64,000 nt of DNA from a phage: sequence record PZ583741.1; one strand, 5' to 3'. The notes under the pieces were generated by a model that was not told where the DNA came from, did no database searches, and saw only the letters and a list, made by a program, of their open reading frames with translations. The translations under genes were made by a program, and so were the position numbers. Position 1 is the stretch's first letter. Each line of letters starts with the position of its first letter. Positions 3,815-53,917 of this stretch are shown in pieces.

Positions 3815-4274
3815 ATACTGGCGACCACTGGCAATTATTATAATTGTTGCTGCTGGCGCGTTGTGGGTTCGTAGTGAAGTCATCAACTACGGCGACCAGC
3901 GATACGCAGAAGGCAAAGCTCAGGCAATCGCAGAACAGAAGGCCGCAGACGAACAAGAGGAGCAACGACGCAATGCAGAACTGCAAAAGATTCAGGCCGA
4001 CGCACAGCAAAGGATTGATGCTGCGCGTAATGATTCTGTCAATGCTGCTGCTAAGTCTGGCAGGTTGCGCGCAGAAACAGAGCGCATCCGTAAGCTCGCA
4101 GAGCGTTATACCGGGACTCAGCCAGCAAGCGTACCAACCAGAAAGGTCATCGTTATGCTCACCCAATTGCTTGACGAGAGCAATGATGCTTATAGACGAA
4201 CAGCGGAGGAAGCTGACAGATATTACAACGCTGGACTGACTTGTCAAAAACAGTACGAATCACTAATTAAATGA
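3795..4274 (+). CDS. i-spanin (Rz-like)
   Basis: N-terminal TM helix then charged coiled-coil region; position after endolysin. Confidence 0.65.
   Translation: MMSILAKYWRPLAIIIIVAAGALWVRSEVINYGDQRYAEGKAQAIAEQKAADEQEEQRRNAELQKIQADAQQRIDAARNDSVNAAAKSGRLRAETERIRKLAERYTGTQPASVPTRKVIVMLTQLLDESNDAYRRTAEEADRYYNAGLTCQKQYESLIK
4018..4239 (+). CDS. o-spanin (Rz1-like lipoprotein) embedded in +1 frame of i-spanin
   Basis: signal peptide ending in lipobox LSLAGC; wholly inside 3795..4274. Confidence 0.6.
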   Translation: MLRVMILSMLLLSLAGCAQKQSASVSSQSVIPGLSQQAYQPERSSLCSPNCLTRAMMLIDEQRRKLTDITTLD

Positions 4275-4279
4275 TATAA

Positions 4280-4370
4280 TCACAAGTGCAGCTAGTCCGG
4301 CCAGACGAAAAGCAACTCATCACTGCCTGCTGCATCCCGCCAAAAGATGACCCTGATGAGGAATCCAATA
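4280..4370 (+). promoter_or_regulatory. conserved 5' leader element, copy 1 (hairpin CUCAUCA / UGAUGAG overlapping the SD GAGGAA)
   Basis: ~85 bp with high identity to 42207..42290. Confidence 0.5.
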
Positions 4371-4871
4371 ATGACTCAAGAAGAATTAAAAAGCATCCTT
4401 AATTACAACAGTGAAACGGGAAAATTCCAATGGGTATCAATGAAGTGGAAAAAGTCAAACCGTGTTGGCAGCAAAAAGTCTAACGGCTATATGCAGGTGG
4501 CTATAGGTGGCAAGGTTTATTATCAGCACAGACTGGCTTGGCTTTATATGACTGGTGAGATGCCTGACTCAGAGATTGATCATATAAATGGAATTAGGGA
4601 TGACAACAGGTGGTGTAACTTGAGGTTAGCAACAAGATCACAAAATGAGATGAATACAGTACTCTCATCAGCAAACACCTCTGGTGTAAAAGGGGTTAGT
4701 TGGGATAAGAGGAATAAGAAATGGTGCGCAACAATAGTGATAAATAGAAAAACAGTATGGCTAGGAAGACATTCATCCATCGAGTCAGCAAAAGCGGTGA
4801 TAGAAAGAGCAAGAGCACATATACATGGTGATTTTGCTTGCGATGGAATAAGGCAAGAGAAGCGGGATTGA
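4371..4871 (+). CDS. HNH homing endonuclease with AP2 DNA-binding domain
   Basis: HRLAWLYMTGE...IDHINGIRDDNRWCNLR HNH motif; C-terminal AP2-like region. Confidence 0.85.
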   Translation: MTQEELKSILNYNSETGKFQWVSMKWKKSNRVGSKKSNGYMQVAIGGKVYYQHRLAWLYMTGEMPDSEIDHINGIRDDNRWCNLRLATRSQNEMNTVLSSANTSGVKGVSWDKRNKKWCATIVINRKTVWLGRHSSIESAKAVIERARAHIHGDFACDGIRQEKRD

Positions 4872-4902
4872 TGTGTGAGGCGCAGTATAATTCGCTGCGC
4901 AA

Positions 4903-4933
4903 TAAAAAAGCCCCGTAATGGGGCTTGTGTTTA
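4903..4933. terminator. bidirectional rho-independent terminator
   Basis: hairpin aagccccgtaatggggctt flanked by A-run and T-rich tract. Confidence 0.55.
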
Positions 4934-5635: not shown

Positions 5636-6121
5636 TTACTTTAATGCTCCGTGATTTTTATGGAAACAATATTTTCCCTCAGCTGCCTTTCTGCATTCCG
5701 CAGCCATTGACAAGTTTGAGAATCTGCCAAGCGCAATCTGCTTTCCGTTCACGGCAATCTTTGCATACCATTTCTTACTCTTGTTATCCCAACTAACTCC
5801 GACAACATTACTCGTGTTATCAGATCGCATAGAAAGATTCTTAGCGTTCTGCTTTCTGCTTACCAATCTGAGATTCTCAATCCTATTATCATCACGAATG
5901 TGGTTTATATGATCGATCTCCATCCCCTCTGGTATCTCACCATTGTGCATTTCCCAAATTATTCTATGCATCAGTCGCACTTTTCCAAAGCAATGAACCT
6001 GCATGTACCCATTACCTGCCATGCTTCCTGCCAGCCTCCCTATTTTCATGTTTCTGTTTGTTTTTATCTTCCAATATAGCAACCCATCACGGTATTCGAA
6101 CACATCATTCCAATCCATCAT
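5636..6121 (-). CDS. HNH homing endonuclease with AP2 domain
   Basis: HRIIWEMHNGEIPEGMEIDHINH...DNRIENLRLV and C-terminal GxHKNHG; paralog of 45718 and 51801 genes. Confidence 0.85.
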   Translation of the reverse strand: MMDWNDVFEYRDGLLYWKIKTNRNMKIGRLAGSMAGNGYMQVHCFGKVRLMHRIIWEMHNGEIPEGMEIDHINHIRDDNRIENLRLVSRKQNAKNLSMRSDNTSNVVGVSWDNKSKKWYAKIAVNGKQIALGRFSNLSMAAECRKAAEGKYCFHKNHGALK

Positions 6122-6320
6122 CACTCTCCTTTATTGTGACTTTGTTATTCTCGTCAACACTGAAGTTGGCGCGAATTAAATCATACATGTCATTTTTAGA
6201 CATATCAGCCAGCGCCACATAGCAACGGGCAAAGTAGCGAACATCACGGAGAGTCAGCGGCTGCCGCTTCTCCACAATGCTGGTGATAATGTCCATCGGC
6301 TCGCGTCGTGGTCTTGGCAT
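6105..6320 (-). CDS. hypothetical protein
   Basis: 71-aa ORF with AAGGAG RBS. Confidence 0.5.
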   Translation of the reverse strand: MPRPRREPMDIITSIVEKRQPLTLRDVRYFARCYVALADMSKNDMYDLIRANFSVDENNKVTIKESDDGLE

Positions 6321-22339: not shown

Positions 22340-22370
22340 AAAGAAGCCCCTCACGGGGCTTTGTTCATTA
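22340..22370 (+). terminator. rho-independent terminator
   Basis: hairpin agcccctcacggggct. Confidence 0.55.
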
Positions 22371-23430
22371 TCTCGCTCATTAATTCAGGTGAGTATTTCA
22401 GCCATTCTGTTGCCCCATCAAAACCCGTCAGTCCTGCGCTTTCATATTTCTTATGGTAATACTTTTCAATGCGCATGGCTTCGGCTCCGGTCGTTTTTAT
22501 TTTATGTATGAGGTTGAAGTCGAATGGTGTTCCTGATTTAAGTTGCGATAATCTTTTTCTGATTTTATTAGTTATTCCAACCTTAATAATTCCATCGGCC
22601 ATCAAGAAATACACATATCCGGTCAATGATGGATTATATCCACCTTTTGCACAAGAAGGGCAGCCACTACCTTTCATATGTGTATTTGGTGATTGCATGA
22701 ATATCCCATGAATAGGGCAAACTATTTTTACCTTACTCATCACATTTCTATAATCAACAAGATGATAGTCATATCTTGAATCGTGAATTTTATTTGACCT
22801 GATGATGAACTCACCTACCTTTAAAGTTCTTCCTTCAACTCTAGACTGAATGCCGCATGACGGACACCCTTTGCCGTTTACATGTGATATGGCTCTCTGA
22901 GTAAATAACCCGTGTATGTTGCATTTAATATTAACATCGGCATCCATGCCATTAAAATTAGCAGCAGAGTAATCATATCTCAATCCATGCCTAGCAACAG
23001 CCCTAGAAATAAAACTATCAATAGAATGCGTTTTCTTTTCGGATATCCTTTTATATCCGCACAATCTACACCCTAAACCTTCAAGGTGTTTATAAGGAAG
23101 CTGTTCGAAATCCCCATGGGTTGCGCATGTTATTGTTATTTTCGTGTGTGAGTTTATATATTCAACTTTAGAATAGTCATAAGAGTCACCATGCTTTGCA
23201 ATCGCATCAGTCACAAACTCACGCGTTGTTTTCCTCTTACCTCCAGAGCATGATTGGCACCCGGCCCCATTCAAATGAGCGTCTGGAGTTTGCTCAAAAT
23301 CACCGTGATAATGGCACGTTATAATTATCTTCATCTTTGAACGGATGTACACTGATTTATCATAAACGTACTTATCGCCATGAACCGATTTAGCTTTGGC
23401 AATGAATTCTTCGGTAGTTAGCTTGCGCAT
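22351..23430 (-). CDS. GIY-YIG (T5orf172-type) nuclease with four N-terminal tandem zinc-binding repeats
   Basis: four ~65-aa repeats of C..HG.F.Q.P..H..G.GC..C; C-terminal GYVYFL...KVGIT GIY-YIG-like domain. Confidence 0.7.
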   Translation of the reverse strand: MRKLTTEEFIAKAKSVHGDKYVYDKSVYIRSKMKIIITCHYHGDFEQTPDAHLNGAGCQSCSGGKRKTTREFVTDAIAKHGDSYDYSKVEYINSHTKITITCATHGDFEQLPYKHLEGLGCRLCGYKRISEKKTHSIDSFISRAVARHGLRYDYSAANFNGMDADVNIKCNIHGLFTQRAISHVNGKGCPSCGIQSRVEGRTLKVGEFIIRSNKIHDSRYDYHLVDYRNVMSKVKIVCPIHGIFMQSPNTHMKGSGCPSCAKGGYNPSLTGYVYFLMADGIIKVGITNKIRKRLSQLKSGTPFDFNLIHKIKTTGAEAMRIEKYYHKKYESAGLTGFDGATEWLKYSPELMSEIMNKAP

Positions 23431-23564
23431 TTTGAACCCTCGGTTAAAGGTGGTTTGAAGTGATGCAGCAGGCGATAACCAATCGCTTTTCGGACGCCTC
23501 CTAGCTGCACTTATTATTGTACCATCAGCGTGCTAAAATACAACAATACGAGATGGAGACTATC

Positions 23565-27366
<3,802 letters not shown>

Positions 27367-41770: not shown

Positions 41771-42187
41771 ATGGCTAAAAAGCTATTCAGTAAAGAAAAT
41801 CAACCACAAAATAAACGTGGGAAAGACAAGCGTAAGTTGCTCGTTGAAGCTCTTGAGAGAAAGGGGTTTAGTGAGGAAAAGCTCTATGACGCCATCGTTG
41901 AGATGGCGATGATTGAGCGTGATACTGCAATGATGAAAGAGCTTATCGTTCGATTCAGTCCGTTACCTAAGCCTGTCGCCCCTGTTTTTGAAGTTGATTT
42001 CCCTGATGACGGAACTCCGGTAGAGAAGATTGATGCTGTTATTCGTGGCATAGCTGCTGGTGTTATACCTGTGGACATTGGAAAGACATTTGCGGAGGTT
42101 ATCAGGACTGGGCTTGATATTGCTGAAGTTACCGAACTCGCCGCGCGCCTTGAGCGACTGGAGAAATTACTGGCGCAGCAACAGTAA
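41771..42187 (+). CDS. putative terminase small subunit
   Basis: 138 aa, immediately upstream of large terminase; coiled-coil C-terminus. Confidence 0.45.
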   Translation: MAKKLFSKENQPQNKRGKDKRKLLVEALERKGFSEEKLYDAIVEMAMIERDTAMMKELIVRFSPLPKPVAPVFEVDFPDDGTPVEKIDAVIRGIAAGVIPVDIGKTFAEVIRTGLDIAEVTELAARLERLEKLLAQQQ

Positions 42188-42206
42188 CTGATTTATAATA
42201 ATTAAT

Positions 42207-42290
42207 GCGGCTAGGGGGCACCCGAAAAGCGACTCATCACCGCCTGCCGCATTCACTTCAATGATGCCCTGATGAGGAATCTATATATGG
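42207..42290 (+). promoter_or_regulatory. conserved 5' leader element, copy 2 (same hairpin/SD arrangement as 4280..4370)
   Basis: aligned by eye to copy 1. Confidence 0.5.
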
Positions 42291-44806
42291 CACGCAAAAG
42301 ACTGTCAGCACCAGCAATTGAAAAACTCGAAGAGATTATTGGCGATGGCGTGATTGATACGCCTGAATCCGCGGTGTTCGGTGTTGTTAATACAGATAAG
42401 CAGATTGTTCGCAAACTAAAAATGACGCAAAGCGGAGTTGATGACGTTAGCGACTCTGATATTAACGTTGATCACCTGATACCAGAAAAGCTGGAAAAGC
42501 TACTTTACCCCAAGCGAAATAAGATTGTGTTTGGCGGGCGCGGATGCTTAGCCATCGGCACAATGGTTAGGATGTTTGATGGTAGCCTAAAACGCGTAGA
42601 GGATATCGCTGTTGGCGATAAGGTTATGGGTCCAGACAGTAAACCACGAAATGTTTTAAGCATCTGCCGTGGGTTTGATGACATGTATACGGTTCATCAA
42701 AAATATGCTGAGGACTACACTGTCAACTCAAGTCACATACTGTCATTACGAAAGATTCCATCTGCTATCAGTGACGAGACAAAAACACCGGATGGTAAAA
42801 GAATTTATCGTTATTACCCAAATGACCCTGAAATACTTAATATCGGTGTTTCAGAATATTTGTCGCGCGCAACTTCCACGAAGTTCCGTCATGTCTTTAA
42901 AGGGTGGCGAACAGGATGGGATTTTCAGGAACAAAGCGTTCCAATTGACCCGTACTTTCTTGGTTTATGGTTAGGTGATGGCTCATCTCGTAGTGTTGAA
43001 GTATGCACGCCTGATCCAGAGATAGTTGACTACCTTCACGGTGTGGCAAGCCAATATGGGATGCAGGTAAAGGTTCGCGACGATGATAGATGCCCTGTCT
43101 ATGCGATAACTAATGGTCGAGCTGCTGGCATGGGGAAAAACACCAACCCTTTACTAACTAAAATGCAGCAGCTTGGGGTGATTAATAATAAACACATACC
43201 TGACTGCTATATTAAAAACAGCAGACAGGTAAGACTTCAGATTCTGGCTGGGCTATTGGATACTGATTCGCATTACCACAAAGAAAAGAAAAGCTATTGT
43301 TTTACATCAATAAATAAAGATATAGCCTTCTCTTTGATGGATGTGGCAAGATCACTTGGCTTCAAGTCAAGCATAATCAAAAAGACCGATGTCACCTTTG
43401 AGTATAAAGGTGAGAAAAGAATATACGAAAAGGATGTGTGGGAGGTGTTCGTTAGTGGTGAACTTCATACAATCCCATGCCGAGTAAAAAGGAAGATAGC
43501 AGAGAAAACCAAGTCAACCCGTGGAAAGATGACTGAGGTGTCATTGTCTTATGCCGGGCATGGTGTATACGCTGGATTCACTCTTGATGGCGATCATCTT
43601 TTCTTGCTTGCTGATGGCACAGTTACACACAACAGCGGAAAAACAAGAACAGTAACTACAATACTTACGGAGCGTGCACGCTTTAAGCCTGACAGGATAG
43701 CTTGTTTCCGTGAGATTCAGCAGTCTATTGAGGATAGTTCGTATCAGGAACTGAAAGACGAGATTGACAGGAAGGGCGAGACAAAAGAGTTTCGCGTAAT
43801 CAACAACGAAATAACACACAAGGTAACGAAAGCAAAGTTCCGCTTTAAAGGTCTGTATCGCAACCAGACGACCGTTAAAGGCTTTGCTGGCATTACAGTC
43901 GCTTGGGTTGAGGAGGCTGAAAACGTTAGCCAGACAAGCTGGGAAATCCTCACTCCAACTGTTCGCGCTGATGGCTCTGAGATATGGGTGACATTCAACC
44001 CAAATAAGGAGCATGACCCCACATGGAAGACGTGGGTTGAGCCGTTTTATAGCAAACTGCGCTCAAGTGGCGGTATTTACGAAGACGAAGAAAACCTGAT
44101 TATTGAATGTAACTATTCAGATAATCCGTGGTTTTGGGATACGCCACTACCCAGCCAAATGCAACGAATGAAAGAGACAGACTTCGACCGCTATCAATGG
44201 GTTTGGGGTGGTCGCTTTAACAAGAGGAATGACGAGCAGGTCTTTGGCGGCAAATGGCGCATTGATAACTTTGAGGTTAAACCTGAATGGCACGGCCCAT
44301 ACTTCGGGATGGACTTCGGGTTTTCCACTGATCCTACCGCAATGATTGAAGTTTACATCGAAGAACTACCAGGTGCACGGCGCAACATTTATATTAATCG
44401 CGAATATGGCAAGGTTGGCCTTGAGATTACCGATACACCAGCTGCGATGGAGCAATCATTCCCGATGGCTAAGCGCGCGCGATGGTATGCAGACTGCGCT
44501 CGACCGGAAACCATCAGCCACATCAAGCGTTCTGGCTTTGATATTCATCCATGCACAAAATGGCCGGGAAGCGTTGAGGATGGCGTAACGTGGCTGCGCG
44601 GCTGCGACAGTATCATCATCCATGAGCGATGCAAGGAAATGCAGAATGAAGCGGCAATGTACAGCTATAAGGTTGATAAGCTGACCGGAAATGTACTCAC
44701 GGATATTGTTGATGCATATAACCATTACTGGGATGCCGTTCGCTATGCGCTTAATGACCACATCGTCCAGCGCGGTAGCGGAATGCTAATCCGGCGCAGG
44801 AGATAA
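42287..44806 (+). CDS. terminase large subunit, intein-containing
   Basis: Walker A GRG|SGKT split by intein; C-terminal nuclease region. Confidence 0.9.
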   Translation: MARKRLSAPAIEKLEEIIGDGVIDTPESAVFGVVNTDKQIVRKLKMTQSGVDDVSDSDINVDHLIPEKLEKLLYPKRNKIVFGGRGCLAIGTMVRMFDGSLKRVEDIAVGDKVMGPDSKPRNVLSICRGFDDMYTVHQKYAEDYTVNSSHILSLRKIPSAISDETKTPDGKRIYRYYPNDPEILNIGVSEYLSRATSTKFRHVFKGWRTGWDFQEQSVPIDPYFLGLWLGDGSSRSVEVCTPDPEIVDYLHGVASQYGMQVKVRDDDRCPVYAITNGRAAGMGKNTNPLLTKMQQLGVINNKHIPDCYIKNSRQVRLQILAGLLDTDSHYHKEKKSYCFTSINKDIAFSLMDVARSLGFKSSIIKKTDVTFEYKGEKRIYEKDVWEVFVSGELHTIPCRVKRKIAEKTKSTRGKMTEVSLSYAGHGVYAGFTLDGDHLFLLADGTVTHNSGKTRTVTTILTERARFKPDRIACFREIQQSIEDSSYQELKDEIDRKGETKEFRVINNEITHKVTKAKFRFKGLYRNQTTVKGFAGITVAWVEEAENVSQTSWEILTPTVRADGSEIWVTFNPNKEHDPTWKTWVEPFYSKLRSSGGIYEDEENLIIECNYSDNPWFWDTPLPSQMQRMKETDFDRYQWVWGGRFNKRNDEQVFGGKWRIDNFEVKPEWHGPYFGMDFGFSTDPTAMIEVYIEELPGARRNIYINREYGKVGLEITDTPAAMEQSFPMAKRARWYADCARPETISHIKRSGFDIHPCTKWPGSVEDGVTWLRGCDSIIIHERCKEMQNEAAMYSYKVDKLTGNVLTDIVDAYNHYWDAVRYALNDHIVQRGSGMLIRRRR
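42545..43633 (+). mobile_element. intein (363 aa) with LAGLIDADG homing endonuclease domain inside terminase Walker A motif
   Basis: starts CLAIGT, ends VTHN followed by extein Ser; two LAGLIDADG motifs (LGLWLGDGSS, LAGLLDTDSH). Confidence 0.8.
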
Positions 44807-45718: not shown

Positions 45719-46194
45719 TGATTGATTGGGTATCTTTATTTGATTATGATGGAGCGTCTTTGGTGTGGAAGCATGGAAGGGGAGGTGTTTCCGTTGGCAG
45801 CATTGCGGGAACGGTTAATGCTGGCGGGTACATTCAGCTCAAAGTTAACGGAAGATTTTATTATGCCCACAGAATTATATGGGAAATGCATAACGGTCCT
45901 ATACCGGAAGGTATGGAGATTGACCACATAAATCATAACAAGGCGGACAACAGGATTGAGAATTTGCGTCTTGTTCGACACAAAACTAACACTAAAAACG
46001 CGCCTAAATACAAAAATAACACCAGCGGCGTTACTGGTGTGAGTTGGTATAAGAGAGATAAAAAATGGCTAGCACAAATAATGGTTGATGGCAATTACAT
46101 ACGTCTTGGTCTTTTTGATAATTTCGAAGCAGCAGTCGACGTGAGAAAGGAAGCAGAACTAAGGTATGGATTTCACAAGAACCACGGCGCTTGA
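45718..46194 (+). CDS. HNH homing endonuclease with AP2 domain
   Basis: HRIIWEMHNGPIPEGMEIDHINH...DNRIENLRLV; C-terminal GFHKNHG. Confidence 0.85.
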   Translation: MIDWVSLFDYDGASLVWKHGRGGVSVGSIAGTVNAGGYIQLKVNGRFYYAHRIIWEMHNGPIPEGMEIDHINHNKADNRIENLRLVRHKTNTKNAPKYKNNTSGVTGVSWYKRDKKWLAQIMVDGNYIRLGLFDNFEAAVDVRKEAELRYGFHKNHGA

Positions 46195-46222: not shown

Positions 46223-47461
<1,239 letters not shown>

Positions 47462-47516: not shown

Positions 47517-47702
47517 ATGAAAACCAAAATGATTCACAAGTCAGAAGTAAAAATTGGCGACACGGTAATTCACTGCGGTGAGATGAAGACGGTTGGCATG
47601 GAAACATTTGGCAAGGATGAGTTTATGGGACTCCTACTGTGGGGTGATAGCTATCGCTGCGGCTACAAGATGGTTGAGGTTGTAACTGAGGTTAAGTTTT
47701 GA
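47517..47702 (+). CDS. hypothetical early protein
   Basis: 61 aa, GGAGA RBS. Confidence 0.5.
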   Translation: MKTKMIHKSEVKIGDTVIHCGEMKTVGMETFGKDEFMGLLLWGDSYRCGYKMVEVVTEVKF

Positions 47703-47746
47703 ATAGCACGAATTGCTAAACCTTCCGCAAGGCCGTTTGATATAGT
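47703..47746 (+). promoter_or_regulatory. B-module promoter cassette 1: ATAGCACGAATTGCTAAA - N20 - TATAGT
   Basis: palindrome TAGCA-N5-TGCTA; -10 hexamer 38 bp after motif start. Confidence 0.5.
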
Positions 47747-47966
47747 GGTCTTGTTGAAGCAAAACAATCAATCATGGGGTTACACAAATGCAAGTTTATA
47801 AATCACCTGGCGGCGCTCGTTACGTTGTTGTTGATGGCATGGTGTACTGCAAGCCGCTAACCGGATTCACATTTCGCTCGTCAATGACGGTGGATCGATA
47901 CCTTTAGTTGATAGGTTGGGGATTTCTTAGGTTTGAAAAGGTAATCAAGCCTATAATGACCGTCAA

Positions 47967-48010
47967 ATAGCACGAATTGTTAAAATGGGATTCATCCTGA
48001 ATGGTATGAT
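47967..48010 (+). promoter_or_regulatory. B-module promoter cassette 2 (variant TTGTTA; -10 TATGAT)
   Basis: same 38-bp spacing. Confidence 0.4.
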
Positions 48011-48162
48011 CCACACATCAACCACAAGAATGGAAGTTAAGTGACGATATACGAACATAAATTCAGCAGTATGGGTATTGATATGCTCCTGCACTATGTA
48101 GACGAAAAATACGCAAATCTCATGCTTAATACGCATGGCGGCACAATAACGAGGATTGAGAT

Positions 48163-48426
48163 ATGAGTAAGTACAACCGTGAGATTATCGGCCTGGATGG
48201 GGAAGTAACCACAGTGGATGTATATCGAGTCCTGGATGCATTCCAGGTAACAGACCAAGCTATACAGCACGCAATCAAGAAGATGCTGTGCACTGGACTT
48301 AGAGGGCATAAGGACTATCTTACTGACATTGAAGACTCCATTGAATCACTGCAAAAAGCCAAGGAACTTTACGATCAGCGCAAGAGTTACGAGCGGCGAT
48401 ACAATTTATCTTTTACAGATAAATAG
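48163..48426 (+). CDS. hypothetical early protein
   Basis: 87 aa, GAGGA RBS; stop TAG lies inside next motif. Confidence 0.5.
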   Translation: MSKYNREIIGLDGEVTTVDVYRVLDAFQVTDQAIQHAIKKMLCTGLRGHKDYLTDIEDSIESLQKAKELYDQRKSYERRYNLSFTDK

Positions 48427-48466
48427 CACGAATTGCTAAACCCGCTCAGAAGGGTTTTGTTATAGT
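48423..48466 (+). promoter_or_regulatory. B-module promoter cassette 3
   Basis: motif plus TGtTATAGT extended -10. Confidence 0.5.
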
Positions 48467-48495
48467 TAGTTCACACCAAACGAGAGGAAATAAAG

Positions 48496-48714
48496 ATGAT
48501 TACTATTAACCTGTCAGATAAACAAGCAGCAGAACTCAAGTCCATGCTTTCAATCTTTGAGAAGCCAAATGACCAGGTAATTGCCAAAGAGGTAGTGGCT
48601 CAGATTAACAACCAGCAATTCGACGTAAGTGACTTCGAGTCATCGCGCCAGTACGAGGCAATGAGTGTTAATGCTGCATACCTGACTAACTGGGATAATG
48701 CGACTAAGAAATGA
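48496..48714 (+). CDS. hypothetical early protein
   Basis: 72 aa, GAGAGGAAA RBS. Confidence 0.5.
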   Translation: MITINLSDKQAAELKSMLSIFEKPNDQVIAKEVVAQINNQQFDVSDFESSRQYEAMSVNAAYLTNWDNATKK

Positions 48715-48860
48715 TTTTATACATACATGAGTACTGGACGGGGAAGTTTAACACAGTTCGACATGTCCGTGTTTACGAAGATTATGTAAATGCATTCAAT
48801 CAGCAGAAGGTTCTTGGTGGCACCATCAAGGTTTGCGATGTTGTGGATGAGATTTACTAA
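48711..48860 (+). CDS. small hypothetical protein (49 aa)
   Basis: manual ORF, ATGA overlap. Confidence 0.35.
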   Translation: MILYIHEYWTGKFNTVRHVRVYEDYVNAFNQQKVLGGTIKVCDVVDEIY

Positions 48861-48904
48861 ATAGCACGAATTGCTAAAGCAGTCTTGGGGTAATTTGTTA
48901 TAGT
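48861..48904 (+). promoter_or_regulatory. B-module promoter cassette 4
   Basis: motif plus TGtTATAGT. Confidence 0.5.
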
Positions 48905-48934
48905 TACCACATCAAAACTAACGAGGTTATAAGA

Positions 48935-49039
48935 ATGAGTGAATTAATTAAAACTATCGCGGACTATCCATTTGCTTCGCTTTTTCTTGCTATTGCAATA
49001 TATGAAATTGTAAAGATTATTGTCAAATGTATTAAATAG
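48935..49039 (+). CDS. small membrane peptide (34 aa)
   Basis: manual ORF, GAGG RBS. Confidence 0.3.
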   Translation: MSELIKTIADYPFASLFLAIAIYEIVKIIVKCIK

Positions 49040-49079
49040 CACGAATTTCTAAAACATTATCGGGGTATCTTACTATAGT
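49036..49079 (+). promoter_or_regulatory. B-module promoter cassette 5 (variant TTTCTA)
   Basis: motif plus TATAGT at fixed spacing. Confidence 0.45.
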
Positions 49080-49109
49080 TACCCCATCAAAACGAAACAG
49101 GAAGCAGAA

Positions 49110-49289
49110 ATGAAATTTCAACAAGGCGAGCCAAAGCTACAAGTCAACCACTTCGATGGTTACGCAACATTCATCATAGCCCAGGCTTGCGGGATGCGAG
49201 ATGAACCTCACGTTCACACCATTCACTTAACAGAAGAACAGGCACGAGAACTGGCTTACGAAATTCTTGAGCAATTGAACCGAATTTAA
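49110..49289 (+). CDS. hypothetical protein (59 aa)
   Basis: GGAAG RBS. Confidence 0.4.
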   Translation: MKFQQGEPKLQVNHFDGYATFIIAQACGMRDEPHVHTIHLTEEQARELAYEILEQLNRI

Positions 49290-49338
49290 CGCGCATAAAA
49301 CGCATTCTAACGAACGATAATTTAAGTAAGGCGATTCT

Positions 49339-49497
49339 ATGATTAAGGTTGTTTTTATTGCTGATGATGGTGTTTATCCATTATTATCTAATGGTGATGT
49401 TATTTACGTGCAAGACATGGGTTGCGCATATATCTATACAGATGAGTTTGGTGACTCTTATTATATTGAGAAATGGGAAGTTGAGGAGATTGCATGA
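49339..49497 (+). CDS. small protein, paralog 1 (52 aa)
   Basis: MIKVVFIADDG...; similar to next ORF. Confidence 0.4.
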   Translation: MIKVVFIADDGVYPLLSNGDVIYVQDMGCAYIYTDEFGDSYYIEKWEVEEIA

Positions 49498-49655
49498 TTA
49501 AGCTTGTTTATGTGGGTGAGAGTGATTATGTGGCGCTCATTCAGAGTGGTGATGTGTTCTTCGCAGAGATGAGTGATGATGGTAGTTTCTACATCGTAAA
49601 GAACAAGAATGGCGAAGATATCTACCTTTCAAAAGATGAGGTCATCATTTACTAA
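49494..49655 (+). CDS. small protein, paralog 2 (53 aa)
   Basis: MIKLVYVGESD...; tandem duplicate. Confidence 0.4.
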   Translation: MIKLVYVGESDYVALIQSGDVFFAEMSDDGSFYIVKNKNGEDIYLSKDEVIIY

Positions 49656-49780
49656 TGGATAACTACGAATCACCAGTAGAGTGGTGTAAGCGAATGCAGG
49701 ACGAAGCTAAAACTGGTGAAGAGGCGATGGCTTACTACGAACTGGCGCAAATTTGGATGGAACGTGAGAAGAAAGAATGA
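49655..49780 (+). CDS. small hypothetical protein (41 aa)
   Basis: manual ORF with overlapping start/stop. Confidence 0.3.
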   Translation: MDNYESPVEWCKRMQDEAKTGEEAMAYYELAQIWMEREKKE

Positions 49781-49920
49781 GCTTCACTGAATACGTTATC
49801 GCATGCGAGAGACTGGTCTTTGACATGAAGACTTTTCACTGGTTCATCATCAAGGATTTAATTAAGCCTTACAAGCAAGGCGTTACGCCAGAGGCTTTTG
49901 TTAAGTCATTCTACAAATAG
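49777..49920 (+). CDS. small hypothetical protein (47 aa)
   Basis: manual ORF; stop TAG inside next motif. Confidence 0.35.
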   Translation: MSFTEYVIACERLVFDMKTFHWFIIKDLIKPYKQGVTPEAFVKSFYK

Positions 49921-49960
49921 CACGAATTGCTAAACGCAGTCGCCATGGATGGCATATAAT
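49917..49960 (+). promoter_or_regulatory. B-module promoter cassette 6 (-10 TATAAT)
   Basis: motif plus consensus -10 at fixed spacing. Confidence 0.5.
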
Positions 49961-49993
49961 TACCACATCAACACAACGAAGAGAGATATAATA

Positions 49994-50140
49994 ATGAAAA
50001 ATGTATTTGGCATCAGCTATGAAGAAGAGTTTGTTGATTGCCTTATTTACCTGAATGAGATCTACGGAGATGAGTTTGAATGTGATGGTGATTCACTTCA
50101 TGCAAAAATAGAACTTGAAACATTTGGGGAGGTTGTCTAA
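49994..50140 (+). CDS. hypothetical protein (48 aa)
   Basis: ATG at 49994 in ORF 49949..50140. Confidence 0.4.
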   Translation: MKNVFGISYEEEFVDCLIYLNEIYGDEFECDGDSLHAKIELETFGEVV

Positions 50141-50382
50141 TGATGTTTGGATTATCAGAAGCACACTTCAACGCAGTTAAACGCCAGGCAGCAAAGTTGA
50201 ACGAAGAGTACAGCAAGTTATCGCCAAAACAGCGCAAGGACGATAAGCAGGTTGCGGCATTGATTTCAAAGATGTGGGAGCCAGTTTTCACAATCATTAG
50301 TCGAGACCGCTTTGTTTGGACCAGTGGGTATCTTAAGGGTAGAGTAGGTCACGACGAGAATGGGAATAGTCTTTATGAGTAA
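50140..50382 (+). CDS. hypothetical protein
   Basis: 80 aa, GGGAGG RBS. Confidence 0.5.
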   Translation: MMFGLSEAHFNAVKRQAAKLNEEYSKLSPKQRKDDKQVAALISKMWEPVFTIISRDRFVWTSGYLKGRVGHDENGNSLYE

Positions 50383-50557
50383 TTGCAATAAGCATAGGTA
50401 TAAGTACGCTTTCAGTTCAAAACTTACAGCCCACGACATAAAACTACTTAATCTAGGTTACTTCAAATCCAGCAAAAATGAAAATCATGTCGGGGATTAT
50501 AGATCATTTTATGAGTGCGTTAATTGCGGCGAGATGATTGCGATGGGGGTATTATGA
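50360..50557 (+). CDS. hypothetical protein (zinc-finger-like)
   Basis: 65-aa ORF; start uncertain (50360 or 50375). Confidence 0.35.
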   Translation: MGIVFMSNCNKHRYKYAFSSKLTAHDIKLLNLGYFKSSKNENHVGDYRSFYECVNCGEMIAMGVL

Positions 50558-50640
50558 GTGAGTTAACAATCTGGTTTATCGCAGGTCTGATTACTTGGGC
50601 TTACTTTTTAATCGTTTAGATTGAGCTTGTTAAAAAGAGC

Positions 50641-50669
50641 TTGCATCACTGACAGGAATTATCTAATAT
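50641..50669 (+). promoter_or_regulatory. sigma70-like promoter (TTGCAT - 17 bp - TAATAT) upstream of tRNA
   Basis: hexamers and spacing read from sequence. Confidence 0.4.
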
Positions 50670-50838
50670 TAACCACGTAGACAAACGAGGCCACCAGGTG
50701 GCAACGGCGCACGGAGCGCACTACACGGCAAGTCCGTAGCTCATTAAGTAGCGTATGCGGCATTAAGACCTAGCGCAAATAGGCAGATTAATCGGCTGTA
50801 TCAGGCAGCCCCGGAGCCGTAACCGGGACTCATTCAAA

Positions 50839-50916
50839 GCTCTGCTAGCTCAATTGGACAGAAGCAACGACCTTCTAAGTCGCAGGTTACTGGTTCGAAT
50901 CCAGTGCGGAGCGCCA
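50839..50916 (+). tRNA. tRNA-Arg (anticodon UCU), CCA encoded
   Basis: 7-bp acceptor stem, GG in D-loop, anticodon loop CUUCUAA, T-loop TTCGAAT, 3' GCCA. Confidence 0.75.
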
Positions 50917-50931
50917 ATAAAGGAGTTCATT

Positions 50932-51114
50932 ATGTGGGATGTGAAGTTGTCAATTCGCTTAATGGGCCGCTCGTGCAAGAATTGCACTCAAGAATACATC
51001 GCGTCAGTTGCCGCAATCAGCGCTGAGGATGCGGTAGCGAAAGTAAAGGAGATGTCAGGCGCTGACCCTGACACCCACAAATTCCTGGTAGCTTACGTTC
51101 GTGAGCAAAAGTAA
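50932..51114 (+). CDS. hypothetical protein (60 aa)
   Basis: AAGGAG RBS; track ORF 50854 overlaps the tRNA so start moved. Confidence 0.45.
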   Translation: MWDVKLSIRLMGRSCKNCTQEYIASVAAISAEDAVAKVKEMSGADPDTHKFLVAYVREQK

Positions 51115-51154
51115 AAAGTGTTATACCCTCGTTAAGTTTCGTTTCTCTCGTTGT

Positions 51155-51184
51155 TTTTAGCCCTCGCTTGAGGGCTTTTTTTCG
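51155..51184 (+). terminator. rho-independent terminator
   Basis: hairpin agccctcgcttgagggct plus T6. Confidence 0.6.
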
Positions 51185-51225
51185 TCTGCAATATGCTATA
51201 ATCTGGAATCAACAAAGGAGGATTT

Positions 51226-51732
51226 ATGAGCAAAGCAGCATTAAAGATGGGTGAGGGAAATTTCAAGGCGCTCTACAACAAGAAGTATGGCGACATTGCT
51301 ATGGTGGCAATCAACCGCAAGTACACGCCTGAGGAAGTTTTCGATTTCGCCGTTAGATACTTCTCCTGGGCTGAGAGCGAGGCAATTAAGGCTATTGAGA
51401 CGGCTGCTTTCCAGGGTGTGGTTAGCGAGAGCCTCGTACACAAGCCTAGAGTATTCACCTTAACTGGGCTGGCGCTCTTTATGGGTGTCAATATCAATAG
51501 ATTCGCTCGCTGGCGTACTGAGGCTGGATACTCTGATGTGATGGAATTCATTGATAACGTTATTTACGAGCAGAAGTACCAGCTTGGTGTCGCAGGCATC
51601 ATCAACTCTACCATCGTTGGTAAAGAGCTAGGAATTGATAAGCCGCAGGAGATTAAGATTAGCAACAACTCCACAGCTAACGATGTTGACAGTATGAAGG
51701 AAGCACTTGAGTCCGTGATCAGTAAGCTATAG
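51226..51732 (+). CDS. terminase small subunit
   Basis: 168 aa, HTH-like TLTGLALFMGVNINRFARW; AAGGAGG RBS; upstream of large terminase. Confidence 0.6.
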   Translation: MSKAALKMGEGNFKALYNKKYGDIAMVAINRKYTPEEVFDFAVRYFSWAESEAIKAIETAAFQGVVSESLVHKPRVFTLTGLALFMGVNINRFARWRTEAGYSDVMEFIDNVIYEQKYQLGVAGIINSTIVGKELGIDKPQEIKISNNSTANDVDSMKEALESVISKL

Positions 51733-51800
51733 CACTTATTGTTAAAAGAATGGGCCCAATCAATGAGATAATTGGGTCACTAACTTAACGAGGTGATGAT

Positions 51801-52313
51801 ATGAATTGGCATGATTATTTTGAATACAAAGATGGGAAGATTTACTGGAAAGATTACGATAGCGAGAAGCTTGGAAGGAGAAGGATACAGCGAAGATTCA
51901 TAGGGAAAGAGGTTGGCGGCATTGATAAAAGCCTAGGGTATGTTAGGGTAAACATGCCTGGTAAAAAATATTGGGTTCATAGAATAATCTGGGAAATGCA
52001 TAACGGAGCAATACCAGAAGGTATGCAAATTGACCATATAAATCATGTTAGAAATGATAACAGGATAGAAAACATTAGGTTAGTTACAATTCAGGAAAAT
52101 AGAAAGAATCAGTCAATAAATTCTAGGAATAAGACCGGGGTTACCGGAGTCTGCATAGTATCTAGGACTGGCAAGTATGTAGCTCAAATAAAAAAGGATG
52201 GAGAGAATATTCACTTGGGATTCTTTGATAATATTCACGACGCATCGATTGTCAGGGCGAGGGCTGAATTTATTCTTGGGTATCATAAAAACCACGGGAG
52301 GAAAGATGAGTGA
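51801..52313 (+). CDS. HNH homing endonuclease with AP2 domain, between terminase subunits
   Basis: HRIIWEMHNGAIPEGMQIDHINH...DNRIENIRLV; C-terminal GYHKNHG. Confidence 0.85.
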   Translation: MNWHDYFEYKDGKIYWKDYDSEKLGRRRIQRRFIGKEVGGIDKSLGYVRVNMPGKKYWVHRIIWEMHNGAIPEGMQIDHINHVRNDNRIENIRLVTIQENRKNQSINSRNKTGVTGVCIVSRTGKYVAQIKKDGENIHLGFFDNIHDASIVRARAEFILGYHKNHGRKDE

Positions 52314-53877
52314 TTTGATAGTTTGGGATGAGTTAAATCATGCGCAGAAGATGGCTATCAAGGCCATCTCTGAGCATAGTTTCGAGGGGTTCTTGCGGTG
52401 TTTCTTCCAGATAACTCAGGGCGAGAGATTCAAAATGAATTGGCATGCGAAGTACCTTTGCCGCGTCATTGATGAGATTCTTGAGGGTAAGAGAAAGGAT
52501 ACCATCATAAACGTATCTCCGGGATCTGCCAAAACCGAACTGTTTAGCATCCACTTCCCTGTATATAGCATGATTAAGATTAAGAAGGTTAGGAATCTTA
52601 GTTTGTCGTTCTCTGACTCATTGGTTAAGCGCAACTCCAAGCGCGTAAGGGATTTGATAAAATCAAAGGAGTTCCAGGAGCTTTGGCCCTGCACCTTTGG
52701 AACGTGCAGGGATGACGAGATTCAGGTTCTTGATGAGAATGGCAAAGTTAGGTTTGAGTCTATATCTAAGGCGATGGCTGGTCAGGTGACAGGAAGCAGG
52801 GGCGGCTACATGACTGACGATTATAGTGGTTGCATAATGCTGGATGACCCACTAAAGCCTGATGACGCGTTAAGTAATGTAAGAAGAGAGGCTGTCAATA
52901 TGCTTCTCAAGAACACAATCCGTTCACGTCGAGCTAGCTCAGTAAAGGGAAAAGAAACGCCAATACTTTCCGTGCAGCAAAGACTTCATGTTCTGGACAC
53001 TAGCCACTTCATGGAGTCAGGGCAAATGGGCATAAAGTTCGACGTAGTGAAAGTTCCAGCCATAGTCACAGAGGATTACGCCGACACGCTTCCTGATTGG
53101 ATCAAACAACAATTTATTGATGATGTTCTTTCATCACCATTTGTAGAGCGGGATGGAGTTAAGTATTACAGCTACTTTCCGGCAAAGGAGTCAATAGAAG
53201 ACCTGATGGCTATGTGGGATGCTGACCCGTACACGTTCCTTAGTCAGTACCAGCAGGAACCTGTAGCTCTGGGCGGCAATCTTATTAATGTGGATTGGTT
53301 CCAGCGCCTTAGTGATACATTCATACCTCCAGCCAAGTATGATTATCGATTCATCACATGCGATACCGCGATGACCACTAAAAGTTACAGCGACTTCTCT
53401 GTTCTTCAGTTGTGGGGCTATAAAGATGCTAAGATTTACCTTATTGATCAGCGCAGGGGTAAATGGGAGGCCCCAGAGTTGGAGGCTGAACTTCTGGACT
53501 TTGAGAAGAAATCAAGGGCAACCAGTCAGTCAGATGGTATCCTCAGAAAGATTATTATCGAGAAGAAAGCGTCTGGTATCGGCCTGATTCAATCAGCTGG
53601 CAGGGTTATGCGAACACCGATAGAGCCATACGTACCGGATAATGACAAGCTAACCAGGGTGATGAGTGCACTACCACAGATTAAGGCTGGTAACGTAGTT
53701 CTTCCAGAGTCATCGCCGTGGCTAAACGGATTGCTCACTGAGGTTGCGGCTTTTACGGCAGATGACTCGCATAAGCACGACGACCAAATTGACTGTCTAA
53801 CAATGGCGGTAAACCTTGTACTTAACATCGCTGATGATCCTAAGGCGAGACTGATGCGCATAGCGGGAATGAAATAG
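52306..53877 (+). CDS. terminase large subunit
   Basis: Walker A-like VSPGSAKTE; C-terminal nuclease Asp residues; overlaps HNH stop by 8 nt. Confidence 0.8.
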   Translation: MSDLIVWDELNHAQKMAIKAISEHSFEGFLRCFFQITQGERFKMNWHAKYLCRVIDEILEGKRKDTIINVSPGSAKTELFSIHFPVYSMIKIKKVRNLSLSFSDSLVKRNSKRVRDLIKSKEFQELWPCTFGTCRDDEIQVLDENGKVRFESISKAMAGQVTGSRGGYMTDDYSGCIMLDDPLKPDDALSNVRREAVNMLLKNTIRSRRASSVKGKETPILSVQQRLHVLDTSHFMESGQMGIKFDVVKVPAIVTEDYADTLPDWIKQQFIDDVLSSPFVERDGVKYYSYFPAKESIEDLMAMWDADPYTFLSQYQQEPVALGGNLINVDWFQRLSDTFIPPAKYDYRFITCDTAMTTKSYSDFSVLQLWGYKDAKIYLIDQRRGKWEAPELEAELLDFEKKSRATSQSDGILRKIIIEKKASGIGLIQSAGRVMRTPIEPYVPDNDKLTRVMSALPQIKAGNVVLPESSPWLNGLLTEVAAFTADDSHKHDDQIDCLTMAVNLVLNIADDPKARLMRIAGMK

Positions 53878-53917
53878 CACAAATTGCTAAACACTAAAGC
53901 CACGGATGGCGTATAGT
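53874..53917 (+). promoter_or_regulatory. B-module promoter cassette 7 (variant ATAGCACAAATTGCTAAA)
   Basis: terminase stop TAG is inside motif; TATAGT at fixed spacing. Confidence 0.45.

Follow-up and report, generated by a model that had tools for sequence, protein, structure and literature searches.

Leaders and genes in the window

The window, meaning the whole stretch of 64,000 nt that was analysed, consists of two joined phage contigs, 1–47403 and 47404–64000. The first is a Skatevirus/Cedarrivervirus-like siphophage. Its ends, 1–127 and 47277–47403, are identical over 127 bp, most likely because the assembly of a circular or permuted genome overlaps itself. The second matches another E. 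coli phage group (vB_Ec-G8-like). Three genes of the first contig, annotated by Pfam scan, stand directly behind related leaders:

4371–4871, plus strand: free-standing HNH endonuclease gene (HNH_3 + AP2), forming one insertion block with its leader
22351–23430, minus strand: T5orf172/MUG113-type putative endonuclease gene with repeated zinc modules, in an insertion block with its leader
42287–44806, plus strand: large terminase (TerL) gene with a LAGLIDADG intein, directly behind its leader

In each leader, a promoter element precedes a predicted three-way junction formed by an outer helix, P1, and two enclosed hairpins, P2 and P3. The loop of P3 (L) is complementary to two downstream sites, S1 and S2. 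The parts are listed below with bit scores from the Rfam model RF02996 and from R1, a covariance model that we built from an alignment of 45 distinct cores, and with computed duplex energies.

HNH copy
4272–4280, plus strand: extended -10 element TGATATAAT, read from the sequence, overlapping the spanin stop codon
4286–4335, plus strand: int-alpA three-way junction (RF02996, 28.4 bits; R1, 47.3 bits)
4286–4292/4329–4335, 4295–4297/4304–4306, and 4312–4314/4324–4326, plus strand: helices P1, P2, and P3
4316–4322, plus strand: P3 loop L, CUCAUCA, a putative anti-ribosome-site element
4346–4350, plus strand: S1, GAUGA, the proximal complement of L (L:S1, -5.6 kcal/mol)
4354–4362, plus strand: S2, UGAUGAG (4354–4360), with overlapping Shine–Dalgarno GAGGA (4358–4362) (L:S2, -9.9 kcal/mol)

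TerL copy
42194–42199, plus strand: -10 element TATAAT, 7 nt past the TerS stop codon (42185–42187)
42204–42253, plus strand: int-alpA three-way junction (RF02996, 42.6 bits; R1, 54.6 bits)
42204–42211/42246–42253, 42214–42216/42221–42223, and 42229–42231/42241–42243, plus strand: helices P1, P2, and P3
42233–42239, plus strand: P3 loop L, CUCAUCA
42262–42266, plus strand: S1, UGAUG (L:S1, -4.2 kcal/mol)
42270–42278, plus strand: S2, UGAUGAG (42270–42276), with overlapping Shine–Dalgarno GAGGA (42274–42278) (L:S2, -9.9 kcal/mol)

Third copy
23516–23524, minus strand: extended -10 element TGGTACAAT, read from the sequence
23463–23510, minus strand: third int-alpA three-way junction (RF02996, 30.1 bits, match 23448–23511; R1, 50.2 bits)
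23504–23510/23463–23469, 23499–23501/23492–23494, and 23482–23486/23472–23476, minus strand: helices P1, P2, and P3
23476–23482, minus strand: loop region, UUGGUUA
23437–23455, minus strand: S1, AACCA (23451–23455; L:S1, -5.1 kcal/mol), and S2, UAACCGA (23440–23446; L:S2, -6.9 kcal/mol), the latter overlapping the Shine–Dalgarno GAGGG (23437–23441)

The leaders of the HNH and TerL genes are closely similar. A first-pass annotation of the sequence had described a leader of about 85 bp common to both genes, and this was borne out by pairwise alignment of 4240–4380 with 42160–42300, which gave a mean column identity of 81%. In a search of the window, a 30-nt core, CGAAAAGCNACTCATCACNGCCTGCNGCAT, was found at 4306–4335 and 42223–42252 only (0 expected, 100 shuffles), and CCTGATGAGGAATC was confined to 4352–4365 and 42268–42281. 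The annotation had also claimed that CUCAUCA can pair with UGAUGAG over the ribosome site, and this complementarity is present in both leaders: UGAUGAG overlaps the GAGGA ribosome site, and the AUG (4371 for HNH, 42287 for TerL) lies 8 nt past GAGGA. Since the HNH and TerL copies are homologous, we count their shared complementarity as one observation, and its significance depends on covariation across the wider family.

The annotation had proposed a nucleotide search for further copies. The core 30-mer has no occurrence in the window beyond these two, and the Rfam model and R1 found the third copy on the minus strand. With R1, the window contains exactly three copies, and the next-best match reached 12.6 bits. 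The loop of the third copy differs from CUCAUCA, and its S1 and S2 are cognate to its own loop, UUGGUUA, and not to CUCAUCA.

Family membership and fold

Judged by sequence and predicted structure, the three leaders are members of a known, functionally uncharacterised RNA family, int-alpA (RF02996). In an Rfam scan of the whole window, the TerL copy (match 42204–42267) exceeded the gathering score of 35.8 bits, and in a relaxed-threshold scan the HNH and third copies scored below it. A local search gave sub-threshold int-alpA copies E-values of 0.03 to 4e-4, with the HNH copy at 4e-4. All three window copies have the same three-way junction as the family, with P1 enclosing P2 and P3 and with the linkers CUAG, CGAAAAG, and CCUG. 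The 3' tail of the Rfam model ends at S1; S1 of the window copies aligns to this end and is complementary to the P3 loop in all three. Complementarity of tail and loop in RF02996 itself is read from the model consensus only (loop CCuU, tail aAgGG).

The int-alpA motif comes from Weinberg et al. 2017 (PMC5737381), where it is described in the supplement only; the main text contains no discussion of it. In Rfam, it is typed as gene/small RNA and named for an integrase/alpA neighbourhood. No such neighbourhood was found at the window copies, which are flanked instead by spanin and HNH genes, by TerS and TerL, and by tail (tape-measure) and T5orf172 genes, with a promoter just before and an ORF just after. 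A search of the E. coli genome with an alpA-type member found nothing.

Comparison across the family shows the fold clearly. We scanned IMG/VR with a sequence pattern and obtained 120 loci, which a structural filter reduced to 81 instances with 46 distinct P3 sequences. In the alignment of 45 distinct cores, 94% of pair cells of the three-way junction were standard pairs, and pairing fell to 33%–48% once one strand of each pair was slid. Double-sided changes among these 45 sequences numbered 178, compared with 52 ± 6 in shuffles, and RNAalifold, unaided, predicted the same three-way junction. Within the window, the three N positions at which the HNH and TerL cores differ are compensatory changes inside P1 and P3. 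A pattern scan of bacterial genome contigs gave mostly chance matches, and the 12 of 122 that passed the structural filter form a small replication set. We note that the IMG/VR and genome scan patterns required the junction sequences, so that the invariance of these sequences is partly built into the scanned sets, and that the Rfam consensus is the sole independent support for their conservation.

A degenerate form of the leader was found in the Klebsiella phage YX3973 (L002 2501–2603) and in PSH-1 (L125 ~24200–24330, minus strand). It keeps P1, the common P2 GGGUAGCUCCC, and a 7-bp P3 and has lost the CUAG and GAAAA junctions, with an HNH gene still downstream. As this leader was missed by both the Rfam model and R1, the copy counts that we give for relatives are lower bounds.

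Single-sequence folding of the HNH and TerL leaders gave Z-scores of +0.48 to -0.33, no better than shuffles, and did not yield the family fold, which lies 1–4.5 kcal/mol above the computed minimum-energy structure. Folding energies on their own are thus not informative for these leaders. The first-pass annotation had proposed a simple hairpin over the Shine–Dalgarno and had suggested folding both copies as a check. This folding did not single out the hairpin, and the proposal has to be given up in that form, as CUCAUCA is the loop of P3 inside the int-alpA three-way junction. Its pairing with UGAUGAG is thus a loop-to-ribosome-site pseudoknot. A related explanation would be a plain stem-loop, CUCAUCA(N31–32)UGAUGAG, over the ribosome site, peculiar to a terminase leader that was copied with the HNH cassette. 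The 7-bp complementarity of both copies agrees with this explanation, as does the folding of a truncated HNH construct, the only one in which the hairpin was seen (-8.2 kcal/mol). However, the 5' arm is the loop of a covarying helix in a three-way junction, folding is no better than that of shuffles, int-alpA is widespread and not specific to terminases, and relatives place the leader with an endonuclease cassette. The comparative data thus appear largely to refute the plain stem-loop, and we regard it as very improbable.

Three other candidate functions were rejected. A hammerhead ribozyme (CUGAUGAG plus CGAAA) was ruled out, with no Rfam hammerhead match up to E = 10; the presumed core CUGAUGAG is the variable S2, which elsewhere reads GACGAGG, UAACCGA, or CUACGGGG. 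A conserved leader peptide was ruled out, as AUGAUGCCCUGA is present in the TerL copy only and AUG is absent from the leader of the third copy. For the window copies, a role as terminator or attenuator was ruled out as well, since they have no U-run after P1 and gave no terminator match.

Promoter elements

Each leader directly follows a -10 element. The three elements of the window end 4–5 nt ahead of P1, and in the HNH copy, TGATATAAT predicts a transcript start at ~4286–4288, which is the 5' end of P1. The consensus TGnTAYAAT was found at equal distance in nine out of nine further copies from six relatives, so that, with the window copies included, all 12 copies of the group have a -10 element directly ahead of them. 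Family-wide, 32 of the 38 -10-like hexamers within 40 nt of P1 are located 1–11 nt ahead of it. A -10 element directly before P1 implies that the leader is the 5' end of the primary transcript and is carried by every transcript from that promoter.

Covariation of the loop with two downstream sites

The P3 loop varies together with two sites downstream of the junction. In nearly every member, it is Watson–Crick complementary to two direct repeats, S1 and S2, of which the proximal one had been missed by the first-pass annotation. Among the 46 distinct P3 sequences, the best exact complement to the loop was 6 nt or longer in 74%, compared with 10.8% when loops were swapped between loci, and 72% had a further site of 5 nt or more that does not overlap the first, compared with 8.4%. 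None of 2,000 permutations of the IMG/VR members reached the observed mean for either site, and for 11 bacterial members of several phyla, which served as a small independent set, 2 of 2,000 and 0 of 2,000 permutations did so for the two sites. Loop sequences are diverse (CUCAUCA, UCGUC, UUGGUUA, UACCUC, CCCUAAC, and UCAUGUUC, for example), and both sites track each of them. Relatives of the window phage have four loop classes with matched sites, namely CUCAUCA, UUGGUUA, AACGUAGA, and AACGUGA.

The position of S2 relative to the start of translation is regular. At the median, S1 starts 9 nt past P1, S2 starts 8 nt past S1, and S2 ends 7 nt ahead of the start codon. GG or GAG is found within S2 and the next 4 nt in 39 of 43 members, and in Rha-type members S2 covers the AUG itself. 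The earlier suggestion that the leader pairs with the ribosome-binding site gains support here, as the loop and the site overlapping the Shine–Dalgarno co-vary in many unrelated members; this is the comparative signature that a covariation search in related phages had been proposed to find. Covariation of L and S2 supports, at the level of sequence, a form of anti-Shine–Dalgarno translational control. We found no description in the literature of S2 on the ribosome site or of a link to endonuclease cassettes for int-alpA, and a loop:S1 pseudoknot may already be drawn in the Weinberg 2017 supplement.

Computed duplex strengths separate the window copies into classes. Cognate L:S2 duplexes have -9.9 (HNH), -9.9 (TerL), and -6.9 (third copy) kcal/mol, and non-cognate loop-site pairs have -1.4 to -3.5 kcal/mol. 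The weakness of the non-cognate duplexes points to two specificity classes in the window, with HNH and TerL in one of them. L:S2 is clearly stronger than L:S1 in the window copies, whereas family-wide the loop pairs more strongly with S1 in 30 of 43 members, so that the ribosome site might be free in the ground state in most members.

The same repeats could in principle act as DNA, with L, S1, and S2 being one inverted and two direct copies of an operator, recombination, or homing site and the RNA structure being incidental. Operators too co-vary between phages of different specificities, and counting G.U and A.C at the edges of the duplexes (28 and 30, respectively) cannot on its own tell RNA pairing from DNA repeats. 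However, this explanation would need at least two binding specificities in one 47-kb genome and at least four in the phage group. In addition, L is invariably found in the loop of a helix whose stems covary as RNA, and in every case the motif has the orientation of the downstream ORF, with S2 on the Shine–Dalgarno or the AUG. The third-copy S2 also pairs through a G.U in the window where PSH-1 has a Watson–Crick A.U at the same position. We therefore consider a DNA-level feature hardly credible and continue with pairing at the RNA level.

Endonuclease cassettes and the origin of the terminase leader

Copies of the leader in this phage group accompany endonuclease genes. All nine additional copies in relatives precede HNH or T5orf172-type genes, and the insertions are polymorphic. 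HC6 and Bas81 have no counterpart of 4069–4851, which contains the leader and the HNH gene at the spanin locus, and a remnant of the spanin 3' end is located downstream of the HNH gene in the window. EcoIv28_Lewi and EI_sp1 have a 14-nt empty site where the window has 22340–23579. These empty and filled sites indicate that leader and endonuclease gene are a mobile cassette, and comparison of the genomes suggests that, in this group, insertion-polymorphic endonuclease cassettes (HNH or T5orf172) have the leader as their expression module. A CUCAUCA-type leader stands on the T5orf172 gene of SeLz-2, which means that leaders and genes also reassort. Outside the phage group, int-alpA in IMG/VR precedes genes of many kinds, among them Rha/P22-type antirepressors, DUF1376, methyltransferases, tail genes, and LAGLIDADG genes.

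The spanin 3' end is present twice in the window, as a diverged working copy at 4069–4274 (ending in AGLTCQKQYESLIK and a stop) and as the remnant at 4852–4918 (ending in AGLMCEAQYNSLRNKKAP and a stop), which is collinear with the spanin end of HC6. This doubling indicates that the HNH cassette entered inside the spanin gene, bringing a replacement C-terminus. A second HNH_3 + AP2 gene, at 5636–6124 on the minus strand, has no int-alpA leader and overlaps the end of the upstream ORF, so that it looks translationally coupled. Two further stretches, at 45859–45936 and 51969–52046, one in each phage contig, resemble the HNH genes at the sequence level and are 82% identical to each other over 78 nt.

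The terminase probably took over an endonuclease leader, and not vice versa. The first-pass annotation had supposed that the HNH cassette was duplicated together with the terminase leader, and genome comparison suggests that the direction was probably the opposite. In Sf11, IME207, SEzh_1, and EcoIv28_Lewi, the identical leader stands before an HNH gene, and TerL comes next; the HNH gene in this position shows 46% identity to the window HNH. In SeLz-2, TerS and TerL overlap by their stop and start codons with no leader at the junction, and HC6 and Bas81 are empty at the spanin locus. The window terminase thus presumably came into possession of its leader by loss of the HNH gene. ECO111 5-P and vB_Se_EI_sp1 have small unrelated ORFs at the TerS/TerL junction. 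Co-regulation of HNH and TerL, which had also been suggested, is possible, given the same loop and site code in both leaders.

The TerS/TerL junction is a hot spot for insertions among these phages (L130 22130–22170; L128 13086–13371; L129 12170–12305), and an HNH gene precedes TerL in six out of nine relatives, four with the identical leader and two with a degenerate one. The intein of the window TerL (LAGLIDADG/Hint) spans ~aa 87–449 and is absent from all nine relatives checked. TerL intein and upstream HNH gene look mutually exclusive in this comparison, as if two selfish elements competed for one gene.

Proposed translational control by the leader

The arrangement of promoter, junction, and sites suggests a mechanism for the leader. 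A host-type -10 or extended -10 promoter would set the RNA start at P1, making the leader the 5' end of the primary transcript, and the leader RNA would fold into the int-alpA three-way junction with P1 around P2 and P3. The 7–9-nt P3 loop would then present an anti-ribosome-site sequence able to pair with S1, which sits 5–10 nt past P1, or with S2, which overlaps the Shine–Dalgarno ~8 nt ahead of the AUG. Pairing of L with S2 would occlude the ribosome site and limit downstream translation, and S1 would compete for L as a decoy or a kinetic delay. Promoter, junction, S1, and S2 with its Shine–Dalgarno would travel with free-standing endonuclease genes as one cassette, and the TerL copy would be an endonuclease-cassette leader minus its HNH gene. 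We hold with moderate confidence that the leader is an anti-Shine–Dalgarno brake, acting through L:S2, on cassette endonuclease genes and here on TerL. That L:S2 pairing represses translation, that it does so in cis, and that S1 competes for L are what we infer. Since TerL is essential, strong constitutive repression would need a relief mechanism, and we found none.

Control of this kind has precedent in T4-type phages, in which RNA structures that mask the ribosome site hold down the translation of homing endonucleases (PMC2988022), and the anti-Shine–Dalgarno reading fits this documented need to limit their synthesis. The T4-family genes I-TevI/II/III, segB, and mobE are likewise endonuclease genes with a translation-limiting structure over the Shine–Dalgarno (PMC2988022). 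T4 uses a local hairpin for this, and late transcripts, which start from a late promoter within the hairpin, have a free ribosome site, whereas the window leaders have their promoter upstream of the whole structure; no late promoter inside the inhibitory structure was found in them, and the -10 elements lie upstream of P1. The window leaders further differ in their long-range loop-to-site pseudoknot, their decoy site, and their membership in a family conserved across phyla.

By analogy of parts, the c4/CI antisense RNA is functionally the nearest of the known systems with duplicated targets. In phages P1/P7 (c4) and P4 (CI), this structured RNA is encoded in the leader of the operon that it controls (PMC8198154; Citron and Schuster 1990, cited there). 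C4 RNA (RF01695; targets c4-a1b1, RF03163) resembles the window leaders in having a long closing helix around two hairpins, an antisense loop, and targets duplicated on one transcript, one of which controls translation of or readthrough into the next gene. However, the junctions differ. The C4 covariance model, which finds P4 CI at 74.9 bits, was also run with a cutoff of E = 10 on the window and on two 301-nt regions and matched nothing there. In c4/CI, one target lies on each side of the RNA, whereas both are downstream in the window leaders, so that the analogy is one of function only. The c4/CI RNA matures through RNase P and exonucleases and acts in trans in immunity; RNase P-type processing would be unneeded in the window leaders if the promoter sets the 5' end, and these leaders belong to endonuclease genes in a phage with no evident lysogeny module.

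This analogue, like the "sRNA" label of the family in Rfam, also suggests an alternative, in which the junction RNA would be terminated or processed after P1 and accumulate and its loop would repress, as a trans-acting antisense sRNA, any mRNA with a cognate S2, while S1 would neutralise the loop within the full-length mRNA and HNH and TerL would cross-regulate. The topology is that of C4/CI RNA, with a long P1 around two hairpins and an antisense second loop, and C4/CI likewise has doubled targets on one transcript with one at the ribosome site (PMC8198154). Many family members have a terminator-like U-run right after P1, and the stronger L:S1 duplex family-wide fits masking of the loop by S1 in cis. 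The L and S2 codes of HNH and TerL are identical, so that cross-talk between both leaders would be allowed, and the code of the third copy is orthogonal to theirs. However, the U-run or terminator after P1 is absent from all three window copies, and we found no processing signal. Every copy adjoins an ORF with its own cognate S2, which makes action in cis the simpler explanation. A trans-acting RNA is compatible with the cis model and does not exclude it; on balance, we think it rather unlikely, though it deserves serious attention.

The most conserved part of the motif points to a further alternative. Near-invariant junction nucleotides are not accounted for by a pure anti-ribosome-site model, and the junction (CUAG, CGAAAAG, CCUG) could instead bind a protein or small ligand that chooses between L:S1 (on) and L:S2 (off), or the pseudoknot could activate translation. 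Junction nucleotides are invariant across phages and several bacterial phyla while helices and loop vary freely, and one loop with two mutually exclusive partners has the anatomy of a switch. Activating pseudoknots beside ribosome sites also exist. In repZ/repA of IncI-alpha and IncB plasmids (Rfam PK-repZ), a hairpin loop pairs beside the ribosome-binding site of the downstream gene, and the resulting pseudoknot switches translation on unless a separate antisense RNA blocks it; this system has no three-way junction and no duplicated target, and PK-repZ gave no Rfam match in the window. Against a switch, the invariance is partly built in by the search pattern, leaving the Rfam consensus as independent, and the PSH-1/YX3973 leader keeps P1–P3 without CUAG and GAAAA, which shows that at least one lineage can do without the junction sequence. 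For the activating version in particular, S2 covers the Shine–Dalgarno core in many members, which favours repression. We judge a regulated switch to be improbable and prefer the brake acting through L:S2.

More broadly, and as a tentative proposal that we would not yet call likely, int-alpA may be a portable, re-codable, self-targeting leader, with a fixed scaffold and a variable triplet of loop, decoy, and ribosome site, that is placed on selfish or accessory genes across phyla, with copies of the same code networked in trans and others insulated. If this is true, its accessory targets would include homing endonucleases, antirepressors, and methyltransferases of phages and prophages, an orphan "sRNA" family would become a general class of cis/trans translational governors, and terminase synthesis in this phage would be tied to a homing-endonuclease control circuit. 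The brake model gives an orphan Rfam motif with no known function a concrete, testable mechanism. Under it, free-standing homing endonuclease genes of T1-like siphophages would have their own promoter and translational governor within one mobile cassette, and an essential large terminase gene could fall under the control of a selfish element. The re-codable design of loop and site is also a possible compact orthogonal translation regulator for engineering.

Other observations

Salmonella phage seszw is represented by dozens of records (MZ375295–MZ375355, OL9647xx) of 36 to 46 kb, some of which lack the HNH gene through deletion and retain no more than the initial 79 nt of its leader. These records look like a deletion or minimisation series, which could be a natural test of whether leader and HNH gene are dispensable.

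In the second phage contig of the window, AAATAGCACGAATTGCTAAA occurs seven times within 47696–53891, and four of the seven copies are followed ~20–25 nt later by a TATAGTTA- or TATAATTAC-type sequence. From their sequence, these copies look like a phage-specific promoter or operator set. The same contig contains a tRNA gene at 50839–50913 (Rfam tRNA, 53.4 bits).
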